Positions 2,341 to 62,885 of a DNA stretch of 64,000 nt are shown piece by piece; within the stretch, counting starts at the first letter, position 1; every line of letters begins with the position of its first letter. Made by a program: the position numbers and the translations under genes. The notes beneath the pieces were generated by a model that was given only the letters and a program-made list of their open reading frames with translations, was not told where the DNA came from and ran no database searches. The stretch is from Escherichia coli (GTDB lineage: Bacteria; Pseudomonadota; Gammaproteobacteria; Enterobacterales; Enterobacteriaceae): NCBI RefSeq assembly GCF_003790525.1, contig NZ_CP033635.1. One strand, written 5' to 3'.

Positions 2341-2376
2341 GTATTTCGTTTAGGACTCATTGGTGTAACTGATTAT

Positions 2377-3255
2377 TTACACCAAATTTACAGAGAAGAT
2401 TTCCTCGACCATTGCCCCCGCCAGACGCTGCGCTGAACAGAGTCGTGGCATCCCCAGCGCGACAGTTTGCCAGCGTTGGGTCACTGACCAGCAAACGGGT
2501 TGTTTATCTGCCGTGGTCCACTTTCCCAGCCAACTTAAAAAATCAGCATGATCCCCGCCCGTCGAAACGGTCGAAGAGGCAAACCACTGATGGTAATAGT
2601 GACGCGTGGTCGGGGCCGCATTGATACTCTCTGCCAGATGTTGTGTCGCTTTCACGCGCAAATCACCCAGCAACAACGCCACCGCTTGCGGGCTTCCCAG
2701 ACGGCAGGCATCGCCAAATGCCCCCCAGCGCAACTCCTCCAGAACGATAAAACAGCGCCCAGGCAACGACCAGGCGTTATACGCCCCAGCACGCCAGCGG
2801 GTAAAAATTTGCTCGCTCTGTTCACCCGCCTGCACCAGTAGGCCTCGTTGCGTTAACGCCTTTTCCTTCCAGCGACAACGGGCTGAAAACCACTCATACA
2901 AGGCGGCAATTTGCTGGGGGAGCTCAGGGAAAGCAGAGTGCTGGCGGTGATCCATTTTTTGCAGCAGCGCCAGATGTTGCGCGATCTGCGTCAGCGCCAG
3001 ATGACCGGGATCCAGCATCGACGCCAGTTTTTCCACCAATGTCAGACGCAGGCTAAGCGGCGCATTTAACATCCCGCTGTTCGTCCATGCCTGAAGCTGC
3101 ACACGCGCAAGAAGTTCCTGCATCAGTCGTTCACGAAACTGCTGCTGATGGGCTTGTGGATGGCGGGCATCATCGCCCTGCGCCAGATCCACTAAAAAGC
3201 GCGGATGAACCGACTCCAGCACGCGACCGGGGCCGTCCAGTAACGTCTTGGTCAA
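2377..3255 (-). CDS. yjcZ: Uncharacterised protein YjcZ, 292 aa
   Basis: ORF track 2377..3255; overlaps crfC stop by 4 nt (operon partner); length and synteny match E. coli yjcZ. Confidence 0.85.
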   Translation of the reverse strand: MTKTLLDGPGRVLESVHPRFLVDLAQGDDARHPQAHQQQFRERLMQELLARVQLQAWTNSGMLNAPLSLRLTLVEKLASMLDPGHLALTQIAQHLALLQKMDHRQHSAFPELPQQIAALYEWFSARCRWKEKALTQRGLLVQAGEQSEQIFTRWRAGAYNAWSLPGRCFIVLEELRWGAFGDACRLGSPQAVALLLGDLRVKATQHLAESINAAPTTRHYYHQWFASSTVSTGGDHADFLSWLGKWTTADKQPVCWSVTQRWQTVALGMPRLCSAQRLAGAMVEEIFSVNLV

Positions 3256-5480
3256 TATCGTTCTGCCGTGAAAAGTGTTTGAATATCATCGCGTAACAGC
3301 TGAGCGTCGGTGTAAATCCAGCTGTGAGTCATCACAGCCTGCTGCAATTGCTGCTGCATCAGCCTGACCACCGATTCATTTTGTTGACGCAGAGCCAGGC
3401 TTTCGCGTAAACGCGTCTGTAATTCCGTCAAACATGAAGCGAACTCAGCGAAAAAAGTATTCATGCCTGCCGTAACAGATTCATCGACCTGCTCTGCCAG
3501 AACTTTAGCCATTTGTTGGCAATAAAGATCGACTTCTGCGCTTAATGCTCGTTGCAACACACTGTAATCAACCGTCTCTGTCGGGGATTTCTCATTTCCC
3601 CGTCCCCAGTCGGGCTGATTCAACCAGCGCGAAAAAGTCTCACGCACAACGCCTAAACGCGTGCTCTGCTCGTCCATTGCGTCCTGGCGCGAAATGACTT
3701 CACTGAACAGCTGGCGAGTGTTGAAGTGGGGAACTGCGCTGTGAAAAACAGGAAAATGAAACCCAGGACGAAACCCTGACTCGCTCAATTCCATTTTGAC
3801 TTGTTGCTCAATGGGCCGAATAACATCGGTTAACACCCGGCAAAGGGTGGATTCAAGCTCGGCAAAACGCAGCGTAAAGTCGCGACTGATGGTGTTCTGC
3901 GCCGTCTGTAACAGTGTCTCACAGCAGGTACGAATCTCGCTTAATGACCCCGAATCATCCTGAAACAACGCGGCTAACTGGGCATTCACCGCATCTTGCT
4001 GTTGACGCAGAAAGAGGTTGGCGGAGGTCAGGGCCAGCTCGATTTCATGTTTAATCTCGCCGCTCACCTGAGCCTGATTGAGTTGAAATAGCTGCAAACT
4101 TTCTTCGATCTGGTGGATATTTTGCCGCAATTGTTCACAAGCGACGTTTAACCCGTGCGCACGAAAATCCAGGTATTCCCGCGCCTGCTGCGCGTAATTC
4201 AACAGTTTATGCGCGGCAGATCGCAGAGCATACAACGAGGCGTTAGCGTAAGCGGCATGAAGCAACGCCTGAATTGGCTTGGCGAACAGCGAATCTTCCC
4301 ACAACTGATCGGCAGCATGACGAATATGTTCGAGGTTCGCCAGGTCGGCATGACGCCAGCGCCTGCCGAGCGCGGCATGGGCAAAATCTTCCACCCAGCG
4401 TTGTTGCTCTGGCGCGGGTAACTTACCGCTGTTGGCTAACTCATTACGCGCCCGATTCGCCAGGTAGCCCCACATCGACGACACTGGAAATATCTGCTGT
4501 GGCGTAATACAGCCTTTCATCAGCGTCCCGGAAATCAGTGCCCGCACCTGGTCGGCGTCGTCACTGTTACGATCCTGTTGATCGAACTTATTGACCAGCA
4601 CATACAACGGCACCGATTGCCCCACCGCCAAAATCGCCTCACGGACCTCTTCATCGGAGATCGATTTCAGTTGCGTATAATCCAGCACCGCCAGTACCGC
4701 CGAGGCGCGTGCCAGCTGCTGGTTAAGCATTTTTTGCAGATGCGGTTGCCCGGCTTCATTTGGCCCGGGGGTATCCAGTAACGTCAATTGGCCGGGATAA
4801 CTCTCCAGCCCCGCCAGATGGACAAACTCCACTTCAATCACGGGAATATGCTCAATGGCGGCGTAAGCAGAAAAAGGAAAATCGACGTCCAGCGCCTTCG
4901 CCAGTCGCACCAAATCATTCAAACTTTTCAGACAATGAAAAATAGGCTGGGCACCCAGATAATATTTTTCGAAAGCGACGCCATTTTCGATCCGCTGCAT
5001 AAGCGCACGCATATCTTTATCTATTTCCAGCACATCGGTCAGATGCTTAATATCGCAATCACGCAGGCGCTGTTGTAATTTTTGAATTAAACAATCGATT
5101 GGCGCGACATGTGAAAAATGCAGTACCGGTTCTTTTTGCCCGGGCGTATGGCGAATAAGCGTCGGCAGCGCAGTCATTGGGCGATTGCGATTAGGCAGAA
5201 CCTCCGTACCAACAATGGCATTAATGGTGGTTGATTTCCCTGCTTTCATGGTACCGACAATCGCCAGCACCATTTCCAGTCGGGAAATTTTACGCAACTC
5301 ATTATTCAGCATCGCGTGACGTTCGGCGATATTAGGCTGACTCCAGGGTAAAGCCAGTTGTGGCGCATCGTCTCCGGGTACAGAGAGAGGCATTTTTTCC
5401 AGTAACTGCAACTGTTGGCGAGAAAGCTGTAACAGGCGTTCAGCCTCCTGACTTAACTCATACAGGGTCTGTGTGTACAT
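3252..5480 (-). CDS. crfC: Dynamin-like GTPase CrfC (YjdA), 742 aa
   Basis: ORF track 3252..5480; GTPase P-loop GTMKAGKST and DTPG motif; synteny with yjcZ. Confidence 0.9.
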   Translation of the reverse strand: MYTQTLYELSQEAERLLQLSRQQLQLLEKMPLSVPGDDAPQLALPWSQPNIAERHAMLNNELRKISRLEMVLAIVGTMKAGKSTTINAIVGTEVLPNRNRPMTALPTLIRHTPGQKEPVLHFSHVAPIDCLIQKLQQRLRDCDIKHLTDVLEIDKDMRALMQRIENGVAFEKYYLGAQPIFHCLKSLNDLVRLAKALDVDFPFSAYAAIEHIPVIEVEFVHLAGLESYPGQLTLLDTPGPNEAGQPHLQKMLNQQLARASAVLAVLDYTQLKSISDEEVREAILAVGQSVPLYVLVNKFDQQDRNSDDADQVRALISGTLMKGCITPQQIFPVSSMWGYLANRARNELANSGKLPAPEQQRWVEDFAHAALGRRWRHADLANLEHIRHAADQLWEDSLFAKPIQALLHAAYANASLYALRSAAHKLLNYAQQAREYLDFRAHGLNVACEQLRQNIHQIEESLQLFQLNQAQVSGEIKHEIELALTSANLFLRQQQDAVNAQLAALFQDDSGSLSEIRTCCETLLQTAQNTISRDFTLRFAELESTLCRVLTDVIRPIEQQVKMELSESGFRPGFHFPVFHSAVPHFNTRQLFSEVISRQDAMDEQSTRLGVVRETFSRWLNQPDWGRGNEKSPTETVDYSVLQRALSAEVDLYCQQMAKVLAEQVDESVTAGMNTFFAEFASCLTELQTRLRESLALRQQNESVVRLMQQQLQQAVMTHSWIYTDAQLLRDDIQTLFTAERY

Positions 5481-5882
5481 AGAAAATTCTTCCTTAAAGC
5501 AAATTTTATTACTTTTATTTAGCCAGATTGCTTTTGAGTTCTGTTTTCGGCTTTTATAATTACTGCAAGAAATAATTTTATATTTAGAGTGTTATTTTTT
5601 ATTAGAATAAATAACGTCTTCCGATACGTTTAAAACGTCAGAAAGATAAAAAATATCATTTGAATTAAAAAAAGAACAAGTAGAGCATTAACCTTATCTT
5701 AAATAATAAATGGAGGCAAAAAGATTATTTTCTTTTTGCGTTTCCTTTCAAATGAAAACGATCGTCGTCTAAAATCAGCAGTACCCCCGACAAACTCAGG
5801 GATTTTGTGTATAATTGCGGCCTTTTTCGGCAATCTGCCGTTTTTTGGCGCTTTTGCCCTGCTGACTTTTGAGGAAATCCAC

Positions 5883-6218
5883 ATGTCATTACCACACTGC
5901 CCAAAATGCAACTCCGAATACACCTACGAAGATAACGGCATGTACATCTGCCCGGAATGTGCCTACGAATGGAACGACGCAGAACCTGCACAGGAAAGCG
6001 ACGAGCTGATCGTTAAAGATGCTAACGGCAATCTGCTGGCTGACGGCGACAGCGTTACCATCATTAAAGATCTGAAGGTGAAAGGTAGCTCTTCGATGCT
6101 GAAAATTGGCACCAAAGTGAAAAACATCCGCCTGGTTGAAGGCGACCATAACATCGATTGCAAAATCGACGGTTTTGGTCCGATGAAACTGAAATCTGAG
6201 TTTGTGAAAAAGAACTGA
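5883..6218 (+). CDS. yjdM: Zinc-ribbon protein YjdM (PhnA), 111 aa
   Basis: ORF track 5736..6218 trimmed to [13 protein letters not shown] start; CxxC...CxxC zinc ribbon. Confidence 0.9.
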
Positions 6219-6234
6219 TTGTATTGTGATCGGT

Positions 6235-6312
6235 AAGCCGGATAAGGCGCTCGCGCCGCATCCGGCAACGATGCCGACTGCCTGATGCGACGCTGACCGC
6301 GTCTTATCAGGC
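6235..6312. repeat. REP cluster between yjdM and yjdN
   Basis: GCCGGATAAGGCGC...GCATCCGGC and GCCTGATGCGACGCTG...TCTTATCAGGC palindromic units. Confidence 0.6.
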
Positions 6313-6377
6313 TTCCCTCTCATCTGTATAAATTTCGAACTACACTTAACTGGCTTCTCTTAACTGAGGTCACCATC

Positions 6378-6821
6378 ATGCCGTTAAGTCCCTACCTCTC
6401 TTTTGCCGGTAACTGTGCCGACGCAATTGCTTATTATCAACGTACGTTGGGCGCTGAACTGCTCTATAAAATCAGCTTCGGCGAAATGCCAAAATCAGCG
6501 CAGGATAGCGCCGAGAACTGCCCTTCCGGAATGCAATTTCCCGATACCGCCATCGCTCATGCCAACGTGCGCATTGCAGGAAGCGACATCATGATGAGCG
6601 ATGCTATACCGTCAGGAAAAGCCAGCTACTCCGGCTTTACGCTGGTGCTCGATTCGCAACAGGTCGAAGAAGGAAAACGCTGGTTTGACAACCTTGCCGC
6701 TAACGGAAAAATCGAAATGGCCTGGCAGGAAACTTTCTGGGCGCATGGCTTCGGCAAAGTCACCGATAAATTTGGCGTACCGTGGATGATTAATGTCGTC
6801 AAACAACAACCAACGCACTAA
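6378..6821 (+). CDS. yjdN: VOC/glyoxalase-family protein YjdN (PhnB), 147 aa
   Basis: ORF track 6378..6821; directly upstream of phnC. Confidence 0.9.
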   Translation: MPLSPYLSFAGNCADAIAYYQRTLGAELLYKISFGEMPKSAQDSAENCPSGMQFPDTAIAHANVRIAGSDIMMSDAIPSGKASYSGFTLVLDSQQVEEGKRWFDNLAANGKIEMAWQETFWAHGFGKVTDKFGVPWMINVVKQQPTH

Positions 6822-8847: not shown

Positions 8848-9627
8848 ATGCAAACCATCACCATCGCCCCACCCAAGCGCAGCTGGTTCTCGCTTCTGAG
8901 CTGGGCCATTGTTCTCGCCGTGTTGGTCGTCTCGTGGCAGGGCGCGGAAATGGCCCCGCTTACGCTGATCAAAGACGGCGGCAACATGGCGACGTTCGCT
9001 GCCGACTTCTTCCCGCCCGATTTCAGCCAGTGGCAGGATTACCTCACCGAAATGGCCGTCACGCTGCAAATCGCCGTCTGGGGCACCGCGCTGGCGGTGG
9101 TTCTCTCCATCCCCTTCGGTCTGATGAGCGCCGAAAACCTGGTGCCGTGGTGGGTTTACCAGCCCGTACGCCGCCTGATGGACGCCTGCCGCGCCATTAA
9201 CGAAATGGTCTTCGCCATGCTGTTCGTGGTCGCCGTCGGCCTTGGCCCGTTCGCTGGCGTGCTGGCGCTGTTTATCCACACCACCGGCGTGCTCTCCAAG
9301 CTGCTTTCCGAAGCGGTAGAAGCGATCGAACCCGGCCCGGTGGAGGGCATTCGCGCCACCGGTGCCAACAAGCTGGAAGAGATCCTCTACGGCGTGCTGC
9401 CACAGGTGATGCCGCTGCTGATCTCCTACTCCCTCTATCGTTTCGAATCCAACGTCCGCTCGGCGACCGTCGTCGGCATGGTCGGTGCAGGCGGGATCGG
9501 CGTCACCCTGTGGGAAGCGATTCGCGGTTTCCAGTTCCAGCAAACCTGCGCCCTGATGGTGCTGATTATCGTCACGGTCAGCCTGCTGGATTTCCTCTCT
9601 CAACGGTTGCGTAAGCACTTTATCTGA
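8848..9627 (+). CDS. phnE: Phosphonate ABC transporter permease PhnE (intact allele)
   Basis: Single uninterrupted 259-aa ORF in track; multi-TM permease; GGAG RBS upstream. Confidence 0.9.
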
Positions 9628-18158: not shown

Positions 18159-18608
18159 TCAATTTCTCCGCTGCTCTATTGCCGTAATCGCCTCCACGCG
18201 TTGTTGATGACGACCGCCTTCGTACTGTGCGCCCAGCCACGCATCGACAATCATTTTTGCCAGTTCGAGGCCAACCACTCGTGAACCAAAAGCCAGCACG
18301 TTGGTATCGTTATGCTGCCGCGAAAGTTGCGCGGAATAAGGTTCGCTACAAACGACGGCGCGAATTCCGGCAAACTTGTTCGCCGCTATCGAAATACCGA
18401 CGCCAGTGCCACAAATCAAAATCCCGCCATCAGCCTCTCCGCCAGCAACGACCAGTGCGACTTGACTGGCGTAATGCGGATAATCAGTACGCTCTGACGA
18501 CCAGGTTCCTTTATCAATCACTTCAACGCCACGCTCAACTAAATGTGCCACTATTTCATGTTTTAAAATGAAACCGACATGATCACAGCCAAATGCAATC
18601 TTTTTCAT
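18159..18608 (-). CDS. rpiB: Ribose-5-phosphate / allose-6-phosphate isomerase B
   Basis: ORF track, 149 aa; RpiB/LacAB family; divergent from rpiR-als operon. Confidence 0.95.
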   Translation of the reverse strand: MKKIAFGCDHVGFILKHEIVAHLVERGVEVIDKGTWSSERTDYPHYASQVALVVAGGEADGGILICGTGVGISIAANKFAGIRAVVCSEPYSAQLSRQHNDTNVLAFGSRVVGLELAKMIVDAWLGAQYEGGRHQQRVEAITAIEQRRN

Positions 18609-18966
18609 TCATCTTCCCCGCCCGCGCAAAACTTCACAATCAAAAAACATTTGTGATGTAAATGAATTAAAAACACCCAAAATCGATGAAACCCGCCTTC
18701 CCTATCTGTTTTACAGAGTTACATCTGGCAGCGCAATAGCGTTAAAGACACTCACTATCCAGCAACATCTATCATCCAATAAACCAGAAAAACAAATAAC
18801 ATCATGTTTTTAAAGTGATTAAATGAAATGAAATTTTAAGCCACTCTCCATTATTCACAACAAAACAAACTTTATAAATTTTATTTTTTTGTGAAGTTGC
18901 CAGCATCTTTTCTGTTCTTGCTGTGGTGATATAGTGGCGTCTTCAATTCAAGGACAAGAGAACGTG

Positions 18967-19857
18967 ATGAGCCAGTCAGAGTTTGATTCAGCGCTTCCGA
19001 ACGGTATCGGGTTAGCGCCTTACCTGCGAATGAAGCAGGAAGGAATGACAGAAAACGAAAGCCGCATCGTGGAGTGGTTACTCAAACCCGGTAACCTGAG
19101 TTGTGCACCCGCAATTAAAGATGTCGCAGAAGCTCTGGCGGTATCTGAAGCGATGATCGTTAAGGTATCAAAGCTGCTGGGGTTTAGCGGCTTTCGTAAC
19201 TTACGCAGTGCGCTGGAAGATTATTTTTCTCAGTCAGAACAAGTATTGCCTTCCGAGTTGGCTTTTGATGAAGCGCCGCAGGATGTGGTGAATAAGGTAT
19301 TTAACATCACTTTACGCACCATTATGGAAGGTCAGTCGATCGTCAACGTTGATGAGATCCACCGTGCCGCCCGCTTTTTCTATCAGGCCAGACAGCGGGA
19401 TTTGTACGGTGCCGGAGGATCAAATGCTATCTGTGCTGATGTACAGCACAAGTTTTTACGCATTGGCGTACGCTGCCAGGCCTATCCGGACGCTCACATC
19501 ATGATGATGTCTGCTTCGTTGTTACAGGAAGGAGATGTGGTGCTGGTGGTGACCCATTCCGGGCGAACCAGTGATGTAAAAGCGGCTGTAGAACTGGCAA
19601 AAAAGAACGGGGCAAAGATTATTTGTATAACGCATAGCTACCATTCACCGATAGCGAAGCTGGCCGATTATATTATTTGCTCACCGGCCCCGGAAACACC
19701 GTTATTAGGTCGTAATGCCTCGGCAAGAATATTACAACTAACTTTGCTGGACGCGTTTTTTGTCTCTGTCGCCCAGCTCAACATTGAACAAGCTAATATT
19801 AATATGCAAAAAACCGGCGCAATTGTTGATTTCTTCTCACCAGGCGCGCTGAAATAA
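18967..19857 (+). CDS. rpiR: RpiR-family transcriptional repressor RpiR/AlsR, 296 aa
   Basis: ORF track 18934..19857 trimmed to MSQSEFDSALPNG start; N-terminal HTH plus SIS domain. Confidence 0.9.
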   Translation: MSQSEFDSALPNGIGLAPYLRMKQEGMTENESRIVEWLLKPGNLSCAPAIKDVAEALAVSEAMIVKVSKLLGFSGFRNLRSALEDYFSQSEQVLPSELAFDEAPQDVVNKVFNITLRTIMEGQSIVNVDEIHRAARFFYQARQRDLYGAGGSNAICADVQHKFLRIGVRCQAYPDAHIMMMSASLLQEGDVVLVVTHSGRTSDVKAAVELAKKNGAKIICITHSYHSPIAKLADYIICSPAPETPLLGRNASARILQLTLLDAFFVSVAQLNIEQANINMQKTGAIVDFFSPGALK

Positions 19858-59851: not shown

Positions 59852-60754
<903 letters not shown>

Positions 60755-60965
60755 TCAATGAAGGATACATTAATTTTACGTTTATTATGATGAATCCTCT
60801 GCAAATGAGCGAAATTTGATAGAACATTTATCTGCTGTACGATTTAATGAACTTAATGATACAGCATTACAAAAACAATCGAAGTTTATAAAGATGATTT
60901 CTGGTTGACCAGAACCCTACCCTACAATGGTGACTAATTTTATTACTCTCGAAGGAGATGATGAT

Positions 60966-61469
60966 ATGAATATATCATATGTGAATAGCAACAAAATGAC
61001 ATCTTTACCTGTTGAGCTAGATGCACTAAATAATAAAGATATCTCTTATTCCAAAGATTTTTCTTATGCCAGAGATTTCTTTTTATATATAGAAACACAG
61101 TTAAAAATTGCAAAAGATTTTTGTAGACCTGGAGAAGAAGTATCAAGTTCTATTGCAAGTACAGTTTTTCATGCATTTATTGATTTAGTTAACAAAATCA
61201 GAGGCAAGAAAGATTGTATGTATATTTGCACACTTTGCTGTTTTGCCGAGGAGGTTAAAGGTGATTATTCTCATTACAGGACCTTTTTATTTGATATTGG
61301 TAATCAATATAAGGTTAAACTTACACAAAGCGGAAAAAAAGAGTTCTCTTTAACATTAGAATTTAACGATACTATAATTGAATCTCAGAAAGTCACAGGC
61401 AATAAGGCAAAGCATATTCTTGAGGATATAGAAATATTCTATCGTAACAAACCCGATACTTATTATTAA
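60966..61469 (+). CDS. Hypothetical protein (~167 aa) in AT-rich islet, function unknown
   Basis: Track ORF 60927..61469 (180 aa); internal ATG at 60966 is preceded by GAAGGAG at RBS spacing; long stop-free frame in very AT-rich DNA; no recognisable motif; 6 Cys. Confidence 0.45.
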   Translation: MNISYVNSNKMTSLPVELDALNNKDISYSKDFSYARDFFLYIETQLKIAKDFCRPGEEVSSSIASTVFHAFIDLVNKIRGKKDCMYICTLCCFAEEVKGDYSHYRTFLFDIGNQYKVKLTQSGKKEFSLTLEFNDTIIESQKVTGNKAKHILEDIEIFYRNKPDTYY

Positions 61470-61691
61470 ATTTAATAATGGTTAGATGTGCAAAAATTAT
61501 TACTCCACACGAAAAAACAGGGAAAGGAATTCCAGATAATTGGGATAAACTTAACAATAAAAGAACTGACAACCTTTTATTATCCCTCACGTAAAACGAT
61601 GGCATCAAAAAAATCATCTATAAAGCAAGAGTGAAAGCGACGACAGTTTAATTTCACTGCAGGCTGGGTAGCTCCAGCCTGCTTTCCTGCA

Positions 61692-62885
61692 TTACATCAC
61701 CGCAGCAAACGCCTTTGCCACACGTTGTACATTTGCCGTATTTAACCCGGCGACACACATGCGCCCGCTAGTAATCAGGTAAACACCAAACTCCTCACGT
61801 AGTCGGTCAACCTGAGCGGCACTTAAACCGGTATAACTGAACATGCCGCGCTGATTAAGCAGATAATCGAAATTGCGTTCTGGCATCTCTGTGCTTAATA
61901 CCTTCACCAGTTCCTGACGCATTGCCAAAATGCGAGTACGCATCTCTTCTACTTCCGCCAGCCAGCTGGCTTTCAATGCCTCGTCATTCAGCACCGCTGC
62001 CACCACCTGCGCACCAAAATTCGGCGGGCTGGAGTAGTTGCGGCGAACTGTTGCTTTCAATTGCCCCAGTACGCGGTCTGCAGCTTCGGCATCTTCACAC
62101 AGAACAGAAAGTCCGCCGACGCGCTCGCCGTAAAGGGAGAAAATTTTCGAGAACGAATTGCTCACCAGAGCGGGTAATCCAGCGCTGGCAATGGCGCGAA
62201 TGGCGTAGGCATCCTCTTCCATACCGGCACCAAATCCTTGATAGGCAATATCAAGAAATGGGATAAGCTCGCGGGCTTTGAGAATTTCAATCACCGCATC
62301 CCACTGGTTATTAGTGAGATCGGCACCCGTTGGGTTGTGGCAACATGGATGCAGCAACACAATACTGCGGGCAGGTAATGTTTTCAGCGTCGCCAACAGG
62401 TCATTAAAGCGCACGCCGTTAGTCGCTTCGTCATACCAGGGGTAAGTACTTACTTCGAATCCAGCCCCGGCGAATATTGCTACGTGGTTTTCCCATGTAG
62501 GATCGCTGACCCAGACGCCTGATTCCGGGAAGTAGCGTTTCAGGAAATCTGCGCCCACTTTCAATGCCCCTGAGCCGCCAAGGGTTTGAATGGTTGCTAC
62601 GCGCTGTTGTTGCAGTACCGGATGGTCGGCACCAAACAGCAGCGGCGCAATGGCATGGCGATAGCTGTTAAGCCCTTCCATCGGTAAATAAAGCGAAGCG
62701 CCATGAGGCTGCGCATTCAGGCGCGCTTCTGCATCCGCCACGGCTTTCAGTTGTGGAATAATTCCCTCTTCGTTGTAGTACAGACCGATACTTAAATTCA
62801 CTTTGTCGCTGCGAGGGTCTTCTTTAAAACGCTCCATAAGCGTAAGAATCGGGTCGCCAGCGTAGGCGTCAACTTTTTGAAACAC
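61692..62885 (-). CDS. tyrB: Aromatic-amino-acid aminotransferase TyrB, 397 aa
   Basis: ORF track 61692..62927 trimmed to in-frame GTG ([14 protein letters not shown]); class I aminotransferase, PLP-lysine region [16 protein letters not shown]. Confidence 0.93.

Follow-up and report, generated by a model that had tools for sequence, protein, structure and literature searches.

The AT-rich spacer between crfC and yjdM of Escherichia coli as a probable divergent regulatory region of two modules

What kind of DNA separates the divergent genes crfC and yjdM of Escherichia coli, and is it one regulatory element or more than one? We studied the locus within a stretch of 64,000 nucleotides (the window), which is 100% identical to E. 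coli SMS-3-5. In this window crfC, which is named rdcA in K-12, occupies 3252 to 5480 on the minus strand and yjdM occupies 5883 to 6218 on the plus strand. Because the RefSeq annotation ends crfC at 5480 and starts yjdM at 5883, positions 5481 to 5882 are exactly intergenic, and neither the SMS-3-5 nor the K-12 RefSeq annotation has a feature between the two genes. A 603-bp query around the spacer was found as a single copy in 5,413 out of 5,426 complete E. coli genomes.

An earlier reading of this DNA, made from the sequence only, had described a divergent, strongly AT-rich spacer with long A/T tracts, and the composition bears this out. With a G+C content of 0.313 (window: 0.529), the spacer ranks in about the lowest 1% of windows of its size. 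It contains seven A or T runs of 5 or more letters and seven W runs of 10 or more. The AT-richness is uneven, with a G+C content of 0.23-0.25 at 5481 to 5700 (0.24 for the 240 bp on the crfC side) and of 0.45 at 5791 to 5882. Other low-G+C stretches in the window, detected with 403-bp windows, are located at 60481-61743 (minimum 0.29) and 18481-18993 (minimum 0.34).

We read the spacer as a composite divergent regulatory region which consists of two modules and is not one element, with a probability of roughly 75%. It represents an ordinary type of divergent promoter DNA, AT-rich and of the H-NS kind, with the left two-thirds belonging to crfC-rdcB and the right third to yjdM. This analysis itself established the composition, the boundaries and how conservation is distributed, and it found neither a coding nor an Rfam signal. 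What is new is detail of the locus, namely the composite origin, a candidate crfC promoter and the leader hairpins; current concepts are unchanged. The importance is modest: crfC/rdcA together with rdcB activates the master diguanylate cyclase DgcE, and the control of the operon itself has hardly been described. The gains are that the yjdM and crfC modules are separated, that a start site reported to be repressed by H-NS is placed in the sequence and that a likely wild-type crfC promoter is indicated.

The evidence for two modules comes from comparing gene neighbourhoods. Searches based on CrfC and on YjdM found the divergent arrangement in eight genera, Escherichia, Citrobacter (C. koseri and C. 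amalonaticus), Yokenella, Kosakonia, Leclercia, Cronobacter, Scandinavium and Franconibacter, with spacers of 346-637 bp and a G+C content of 0.33-0.45 inside loci of 0.49-0.55. In Klebsiella, Pluralibacter and the enterobacterial assembly L019, yjdM faces proP instead of crfC. When L019, which is without crfC-rdcB, was compared with the window by blastn, the homology ended at 2347 and restarted at 5770. This gap indicates that rdcB, crfC and 289 bp of AT-rich DNA (2348 to 5769) form one insertion/deletion unit, and the resumption at 5770 assigns 5770 to 5882 to yjdM. The proP-yjdM spacer of L019 has a G+C content of 50%, so it is the crfC-associated segment that is AT-rich. Treating the spacer as a single unit, as was done before, does not survive this alignment break: it is made of two units with separate evolutionary histories. 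The regions are:

5481 to 5882, no strand: crfC(rdcA)-yjdM intergenic region, 402 bp, G+C 31%
5481 to 5769, minus strand: AT-rich segment of the crfC-rdcB cassette, G+C about 25%, absent where yjdM faces proP
5770 to 5882: yjdM control module, 113 bp, promoter and leader, which stays with yjdM whatever the upstream gene is

At the other end of the cassette only about 30 bp separate the rdcB stop codon from the boundary at 2347, so the cassette directly abuts the proP control region. This boundary lies 10 bp past a perfect CRP-consensus site, TGTGATCAACTTCACA (2322-2337), upstream of proP. The two flanking proteins also differ in their conservation. At the amino acid level YjdM shares 100% identity with E. 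whittamii, 91-95% with Citrobacter and Yokenella and 85-89% with Serratia and Proteus, and CrfC is less conserved over the same species range (88% and 59-67% identical).

The right-hand 113 bp would supply yjdM with a near-consensus sigma-70 promoter and, behind it, a short leader that is U-rich and carries two small hairpins and a strong Shine-Dalgarno (SD) sequence. The predicted features are:

5787 to 5815, plus strand: predicted yjdM sigma-70 promoter CCGACA-17-TATAAT, the best plus-strand match
5822 to 5882, plus strand: predicted yjdM 5' leader of about 61 nt
5828 to 5840, plus strand: leader hairpin 1, CGGCA-ATC-TGCCG, followed by a T run at 5841 to 5846
5847 to 5858, plus strand: leader hairpin 2, small
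5871 to 5875, plus strand: yjdM SD sequence GAGGA, strong

The -35 element (CCGACA, 5787 to 5792) and the -10 element (TATAAT, 5810 to 5815) agree with the consensus at 10 of 12 positions with 17-bp spacing, the discriminator TGCGGCC is rich in G+C, and the predicted start is at about 5822. Both elements and the spacing are shared by 14 enterobacterial genera, among them the ones that lack crfC. This conservation on the yjdM side, together with a published start on the crfC side that is discussed below, upholds the sequence-only reading of the spacer as promoter DNA for both genes. Among the rows listed in further published supplementary tables of start sites, Term-seq ends and transcripts, none belongs to this locus.

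Between E. coli and Citrobacter, identity is 87-88% in the yjdM leader and 73-74% at the third codon positions of yjdM, which argues that the leader is constrained. Hairpin 1 is paired in 77.6% of the alignment cells compared with at most 52% in slid registers. Three of its pairs changed on both sides, a number which 48 of 500 shuffles reach and which is therefore not significant. Hairpin 2 is replaced by different G+C-rich stems in other genera. RNAalifold returned a consensus structure of 0 pairs for the leader in 12 sequences, and the fold z-scores of -1.0 to -1.2 against shuffles indicate no extra stability. The yjdM mRNA has been reported as an intrinsically stable transcript (preprint 10.64898/2026.03.23.713779). 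From these data we infer an ordinary short 5' UTR, in which the 5' hairpin is possibly stabilising.

A comparable arrangement is the ompA-type 5' stabiliser. The yjdM leader resembles it by a stem-loop near the predicted 5' end, U-rich single-stranded sequence, a second hairpin and the reported stability of the mRNA. Unlike the ompA 5' UTR, the yjdM leader has a length of 61 nt instead of 133 nt, and its structure and covariation are statistically unsupported.

The same hairpin could be read as an attenuator, in which hairpin 1 and the following U6 would cause early termination, or in which a leader peptide would control read-through. The sequence CGGCAATCTGCCG followed by TTTTTT was indeed flagged as terminator-like, the leader conservation exceeds the neutral rate, and hairpin 1 is preserved by pair changes on both sides in Klebsiella, Kosakonia and Leclercia. 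Against this, the stem has only 5 bp and begins about 7 nt past the predicted start, and neither the covariation of hairpin 1 nor RNAalifold lends it significance. The U run is missing in Klebsiella and Pluralibacter, and its lack of conservation makes attenuation less likely. The only ORF in the leader (TTG 5845 to 5847, 6 codons) lacks an SD sequence, and 1-nt indels disrupt it in Citrobacter. A role in mRNA stabilisation suits a small hairpin close to the 5' end at least as well, and we consider attenuation rather unlikely.

On the other side of the spacer, the left-hand 289 bp would be the upstream control DNA for the crfC(rdcA)-rdcB cassette. This segment has the following features:

5481 to 5562, minus strand: conserved crfC-proximal block, GTAATTATAAAAGCCG ... 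GGCTAAATAAAAGTAATAAAATTTGCTTTAAGGAAG, then 8 nt, then ATG
5489 to 5495, minus strand: crfC SD sequence AAGGAAG, inside the crfC-proximal block
5555 to 5580, strand not printed in the source: published sigma-70 start at 5567, reported to be repressed by H-NS (PMC10301672)
5563 to 5689, no strand: variable middle, unalignable between genera, with many indels
5691 to 5719, minus strand: promoter-like element towards crfC, TTGCCT (5719 to 5714), 17 bp, TAAGGT (5696 to 5691)
5716 to 5739, no strand: A/T-rich inverted repeat with 9-bp arms, GCAAAAAGA-TTATTT-TCTTTTTGC

The crfC-proximal block can be recognised in 11 sequences representing 8 genera. Its identity between E. coli and Citrobacter is 74-80%, compared with only 47-63% at the third codon positions of crfC. 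This conserved AU-rich stretch of 80 nt ahead of the start codon would serve as 5' UTR and translation-initiation region of crfC. The variable middle has 23-28% identity to Citrobacter with 44-115 gap columns. For the crfC leader RNAalifold again found 0 consensus pairs (11 sequences). A long-range AGCCG...CGGCT stem in this leader was considered and rejected. It is invariant in most of the sequences, and the compensatory case in Franconibacter is only apparent, as different alignment columns are involved.

The ROSE study, which mapped 5' ends in vitro and in vivo, lists among its H-NS entries a sigma-70 start site at U00096.3 position 4,327,049 and names crfC as the gene that may be repressed (PMC10301672, Table S6). 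Such entries are signals detected on naked DNA with the sigma-70 holoenzyme and also in the knockout strain, and missing from the wild type. We mapped this position via position 9050 of the K-12 locus (L002) to 5567 in the window, 86-87 nt upstream of the crfC ATG. There are candidate -10 elements for both strands, TAAAAT (5580 to 5575) on the crfC strand and TATAAT (5555 to 5560) on the opposite strand. The crfC-sense orientation is implied by the assignment of the start to crfC by the authors. On the crfC strand the transcript would begin at T. The plus-strand TATAAT is perfect, is located exactly 6 nt upstream of A5567 and is kept in most of the 11 aligned sequences, so the start at 5567 may be an antisense origin.

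The composition of the crfC side fits such promoter activity. In 5481 to 5769 TANNNT occurs at 76 per kb compared with 18 per kb for the window. Hexamers resembling a -10 element reach 4-10 times the window density in the crfC part, and the frequency of TpA is 0.10 compared with 0.04 for the window (2-2.5 times). A generic promoter scan found 4 promoter-like sites in the spacer and 2.0 +/- 1.4 in shuffles, which is no enrichment. In the general model H-NS suppresses promiscuous initiation by sigma-70 RNA polymerase in AT-rich DNA. Applied to this locus, the naked DNA on the crfC side would be bound promiscuously by sigma-70 RNA polymerase, and in the cell it would be coated by H-NS so that the start at 5567 is silent in the wild type. 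The H-NS occupancy, the usage of promoters in vivo and the roles of the leader hairpins are what we infer here.

The promoter regions of stpA and ftnA are AT-rich regions silenced by H-NS in the same ROSE study (PMC10301672). The crfC part resembles such regions in an A+T content of about 75%, in its enriched TpA steps and -10-like hexamers and, across the whole spacer, in phased A/T tracts. Another likeness is that the spacer start is seen on naked DNA and in Δhns and not in the wild type (PMC10301672, Table S6). The proposal of nucleoid-protein binding made from the sequence has thereby gained a reported experimental counterpart. There are also differences: RdcA is detectable in the wild type, and the spacer is without the high-affinity 10-mer at which H-NS nucleates. 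This motif, TCGATAAATT, has 0 matches in the spacer with up to 2 mismatches, and 1.2 are expected in shuffles. Since the flanking crfC and yjdM genes are not AT-rich, only an upstream region would be silenced or modulated, and not a silenced foreign island.

Curvature was proposed as well, and it is plausible on the local measures, with modest support. The strongest period of A/T trinucleotide tracts across the 402-bp spacer is 10.3 bp, the top of 168 bins (4-25 bp), and only 1.7% of tract-preserving shuffles reach this peak. A wedge-angle model gives 8.8 degrees per turn for the spacer and 5.35 for the window, with peaks at 5640 to 5720 and 5800 to 5860. The global measure, the end-to-end ratio of the modelled path, is unexceptional, as 26% of the shuffles are as bent. 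Like known curved divergent promoter regions, the spacer has two outward genes and A/T tracts at the helical period upstream of both core promoters. Unlike them, its halves are evolutionarily separable. The yjdM half recurs beside proP in other genera, which makes regulatory sites shared by the two promoters unlikely.

How crfC would be transcribed in the wild type is a further question, because the RdcA protein was detected throughout growth in wild-type cells (PMC6510439) and some crfC promoter must hence be active. The top minus-strand match to the promoter position weight matrix is TTGCCT-17-TAAGGT, with a predicted start at about 5684 and a crfC leader of about 205 nt. It agrees with only 7 of 12 sigma-70 consensus positions. 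On the minus strand the island reads TTGCTA-17-TAAGGT in Citrobacter, TTGCCA-17-TATGGT in Kosakonia and TTGATA-17-TAAGGT in Leclercia, so that these three genera and Escherichia share a pattern TTGCYA/TTGATA-17-TAWGGT amid otherwise divergent DNA. Judged from this sequence pattern, the element is likely the wild-type crfC promoter. Expression of crfC in the wild type would presumably proceed from it (5719 to 5691), by partial escape from silencing or by both. The conserved island at 5690 to 5719 could instead be a transcription-factor site; by eye, no convincing match to the consensus of Fur, ArcA, IHF, CpxR, FlhDC or CRP was seen in it. The neighbouring inverted repeat (5716 to 5739) is Escherichia-specific in sequence, and Citrobacter has other A-run/T-run inverted repeats at the equivalent place. 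It could be due to chance in DNA of this composition or could be a conserved structural or binding feature.

Taking the plus-strand TATAAT with A5567 and the minus-strand TTGCCT-17-TAAGGT with its start at about 5684 together, one can propose two conserved promoters that face each other and by which H-NS sets the output of crfC/rdcAB. Their transcripts would overlap by about 120 nt, and H-NS would act via transcriptional interference or antisense pairing. We regard this proposal as speculative and improbable. If it were true, the state of the nucleoid would be linked to the RdcA-RdcB-DgcE c-di-GMP switch that starts the production of biofilm matrix.

The plus-strand signals might also belong to an independent small RNA gene, whose transcript would begin near 5567 or 5666 and stop at the hairpin at 5716 to 5739. 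Plus-strand promoter-like sites are present (TATAAT at 5555 to 5560, with its conservation in most of the 11 aligned sequences, and TTAAAA-18-TATCAT at 5630 to 5659), the inverted repeat looks like a terminator, and the strand of the published start at 5567 was not printed. On the other hand, the authors of the ROSE study give this start to crfC, the stem at 5716 to 5739 consists almost wholly of A-U pairs with an interrupted U tract, and the body of the RNA would be the stretch 5563 to 5689, which is unalignable between genera. The 5660 to 5750 RNA folds like shuffles (z = -0.84), and Rfam gave only chance-level matches. Among the transcripts listed in the tables of an RNA-seq compendium none has coordinates in 4,326,7xx-4,327,0xx, which counts only weakly. 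A small RNA gene at this place is quite improbable in our view.

The searches for hidden genes in the spacer as a whole point in the same direction. An Rfam search of 5000 to 6500 at a permissive E-value gave only chance matches within the spacer, with E=1.5 and 4.1 and scores far under the gathering thresholds. Seven candidate RNAs were folded, with z-scores of -0.2 to -1.2 for the sense strand; an antisense stretch at 5690 to 5760 reached -2.4, solely from the A/T inverted repeat. Leader-peptide mini-ORFs in the spacer are without SD sequences and are disrupted by 1-2 nt indels. The suggestions that the spacer could hide a small RNA or a leader peptide thus found no backing, with nothing in Rfam, folds no better than shuffles and no RNAalifold consensus for the former, and unconserved mini-ORFs and an unconserved in-frame extension upstream of yjdM for the latter.

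Two longer minus-strand ORFs, at 5699 to 5923 (74 aa) and 5725 to 5991 (88 aa), overlap each other and are antisense to the yjdM start. We rejected both as genes, because their frame is kept only in Escherichia and 1-2 nt indels shift or truncate it in Citrobacter and Yokenella. The statement that the spacer holds no credible ORF therefore stands. Several annotation pipelines call a longer YjdM of 133-168 aa that begins in frame at TTG 5736. This upstream part is not coding: several genera have an open frame here, but the added residues show no relationship between genera, and frame-shifting 1-2 nt indels separate E. coli from Citrobacter. Many YjdM entries in the databases have 133-190 aa instead of 111, mostly by unconserved N-terminal extensions that run through promoter and leader and in a few cases by C-terminal read-through. 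These longer proteins (window 5736-6218) are systematic miscalls of the start or stop codon.

The low G+C of the segment might also suggest that it is a scar or terminal part of a mobile element which brought crfC-rdcB between proP and yjdM. Its boundary at 2347/5770 is sharp in comparison with genomes without the cassette, and CrfC homologues are patchy, including Aquaspirillum, Allochromatium and cyanobacteria. However, terminal direct or inverted repeats are absent at the two boundaries, transposase and integrase genes are absent from the annotation, and crfC and rdcB have a host-like G+C of 0.50-0.58. At least 8 genera moreover share the arrangement and conserve the crfC-proximal block, a distribution that fits an old presence with repeated losses as well as it fits an insertion. 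We hold the mobile-element origin to be very improbable.

A flagellar sigma-28 (FliA) class-3 promoter in the spacer, from which crfC would be driven according to older expression-based predictions, is effectively refuted: although the rdcAB operon was described under FlhDC/FliA control (PMC6510439) and GCCGAAAA, a -10 shared with the tsr promoter, occurs at about 5544 to 5551 on the minus strand, a TAAA-type -35 is absent at the right distance from it, TAAA-N15-GCCGATAA with up to 2 mismatches and the FliA motif TAAAGTTT-N11-GCCGATAA have no match in the spacer, and FliA ChIP-seq placed the promoter inside yjdA, where it drives yjcZ, and called the upstream prediction incorrect (PMC4183435). 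We found an exact copy of the published FliA 28-mer, TAAAGTTCTGGCAGAGCAGGTCGATGAA, at 3480 to 3507 on the minus strand of the window, in the 3' part of crfC and about 225 bp upstream of the rdcB start. This FliA promoter drives rdcB (yjcZ) independently of crfC, and the old sigma-28 assignment is ruled out for the spacer.

One exception to the arrangement within the species is E. coli AVS0747 (L029, NZ_CP124467.1, 3616-4013), one of the 5,426 complete E. coli genomes, in which crfC and the spacer are replaced up to 12 nt before the yjdM ATG. In this genome yjdM sits after a truncated cupin-domain gene and beside electron-transfer flavoprotein genes, and this replacement leaves it without its native promoter.

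Downstream of yjdM, a single REP-type unit at 6236-6313 matches the Rfam family naRNA4 with 87.5 bits on the plus and 50.5 bits on the minus strand. The gap between yjdM and yjdN is about 160 bp here compared with 657 bp in K-12, which has the multi-copy REP325, and this difference in size indicates that the REP copy number at this site varies between strains.
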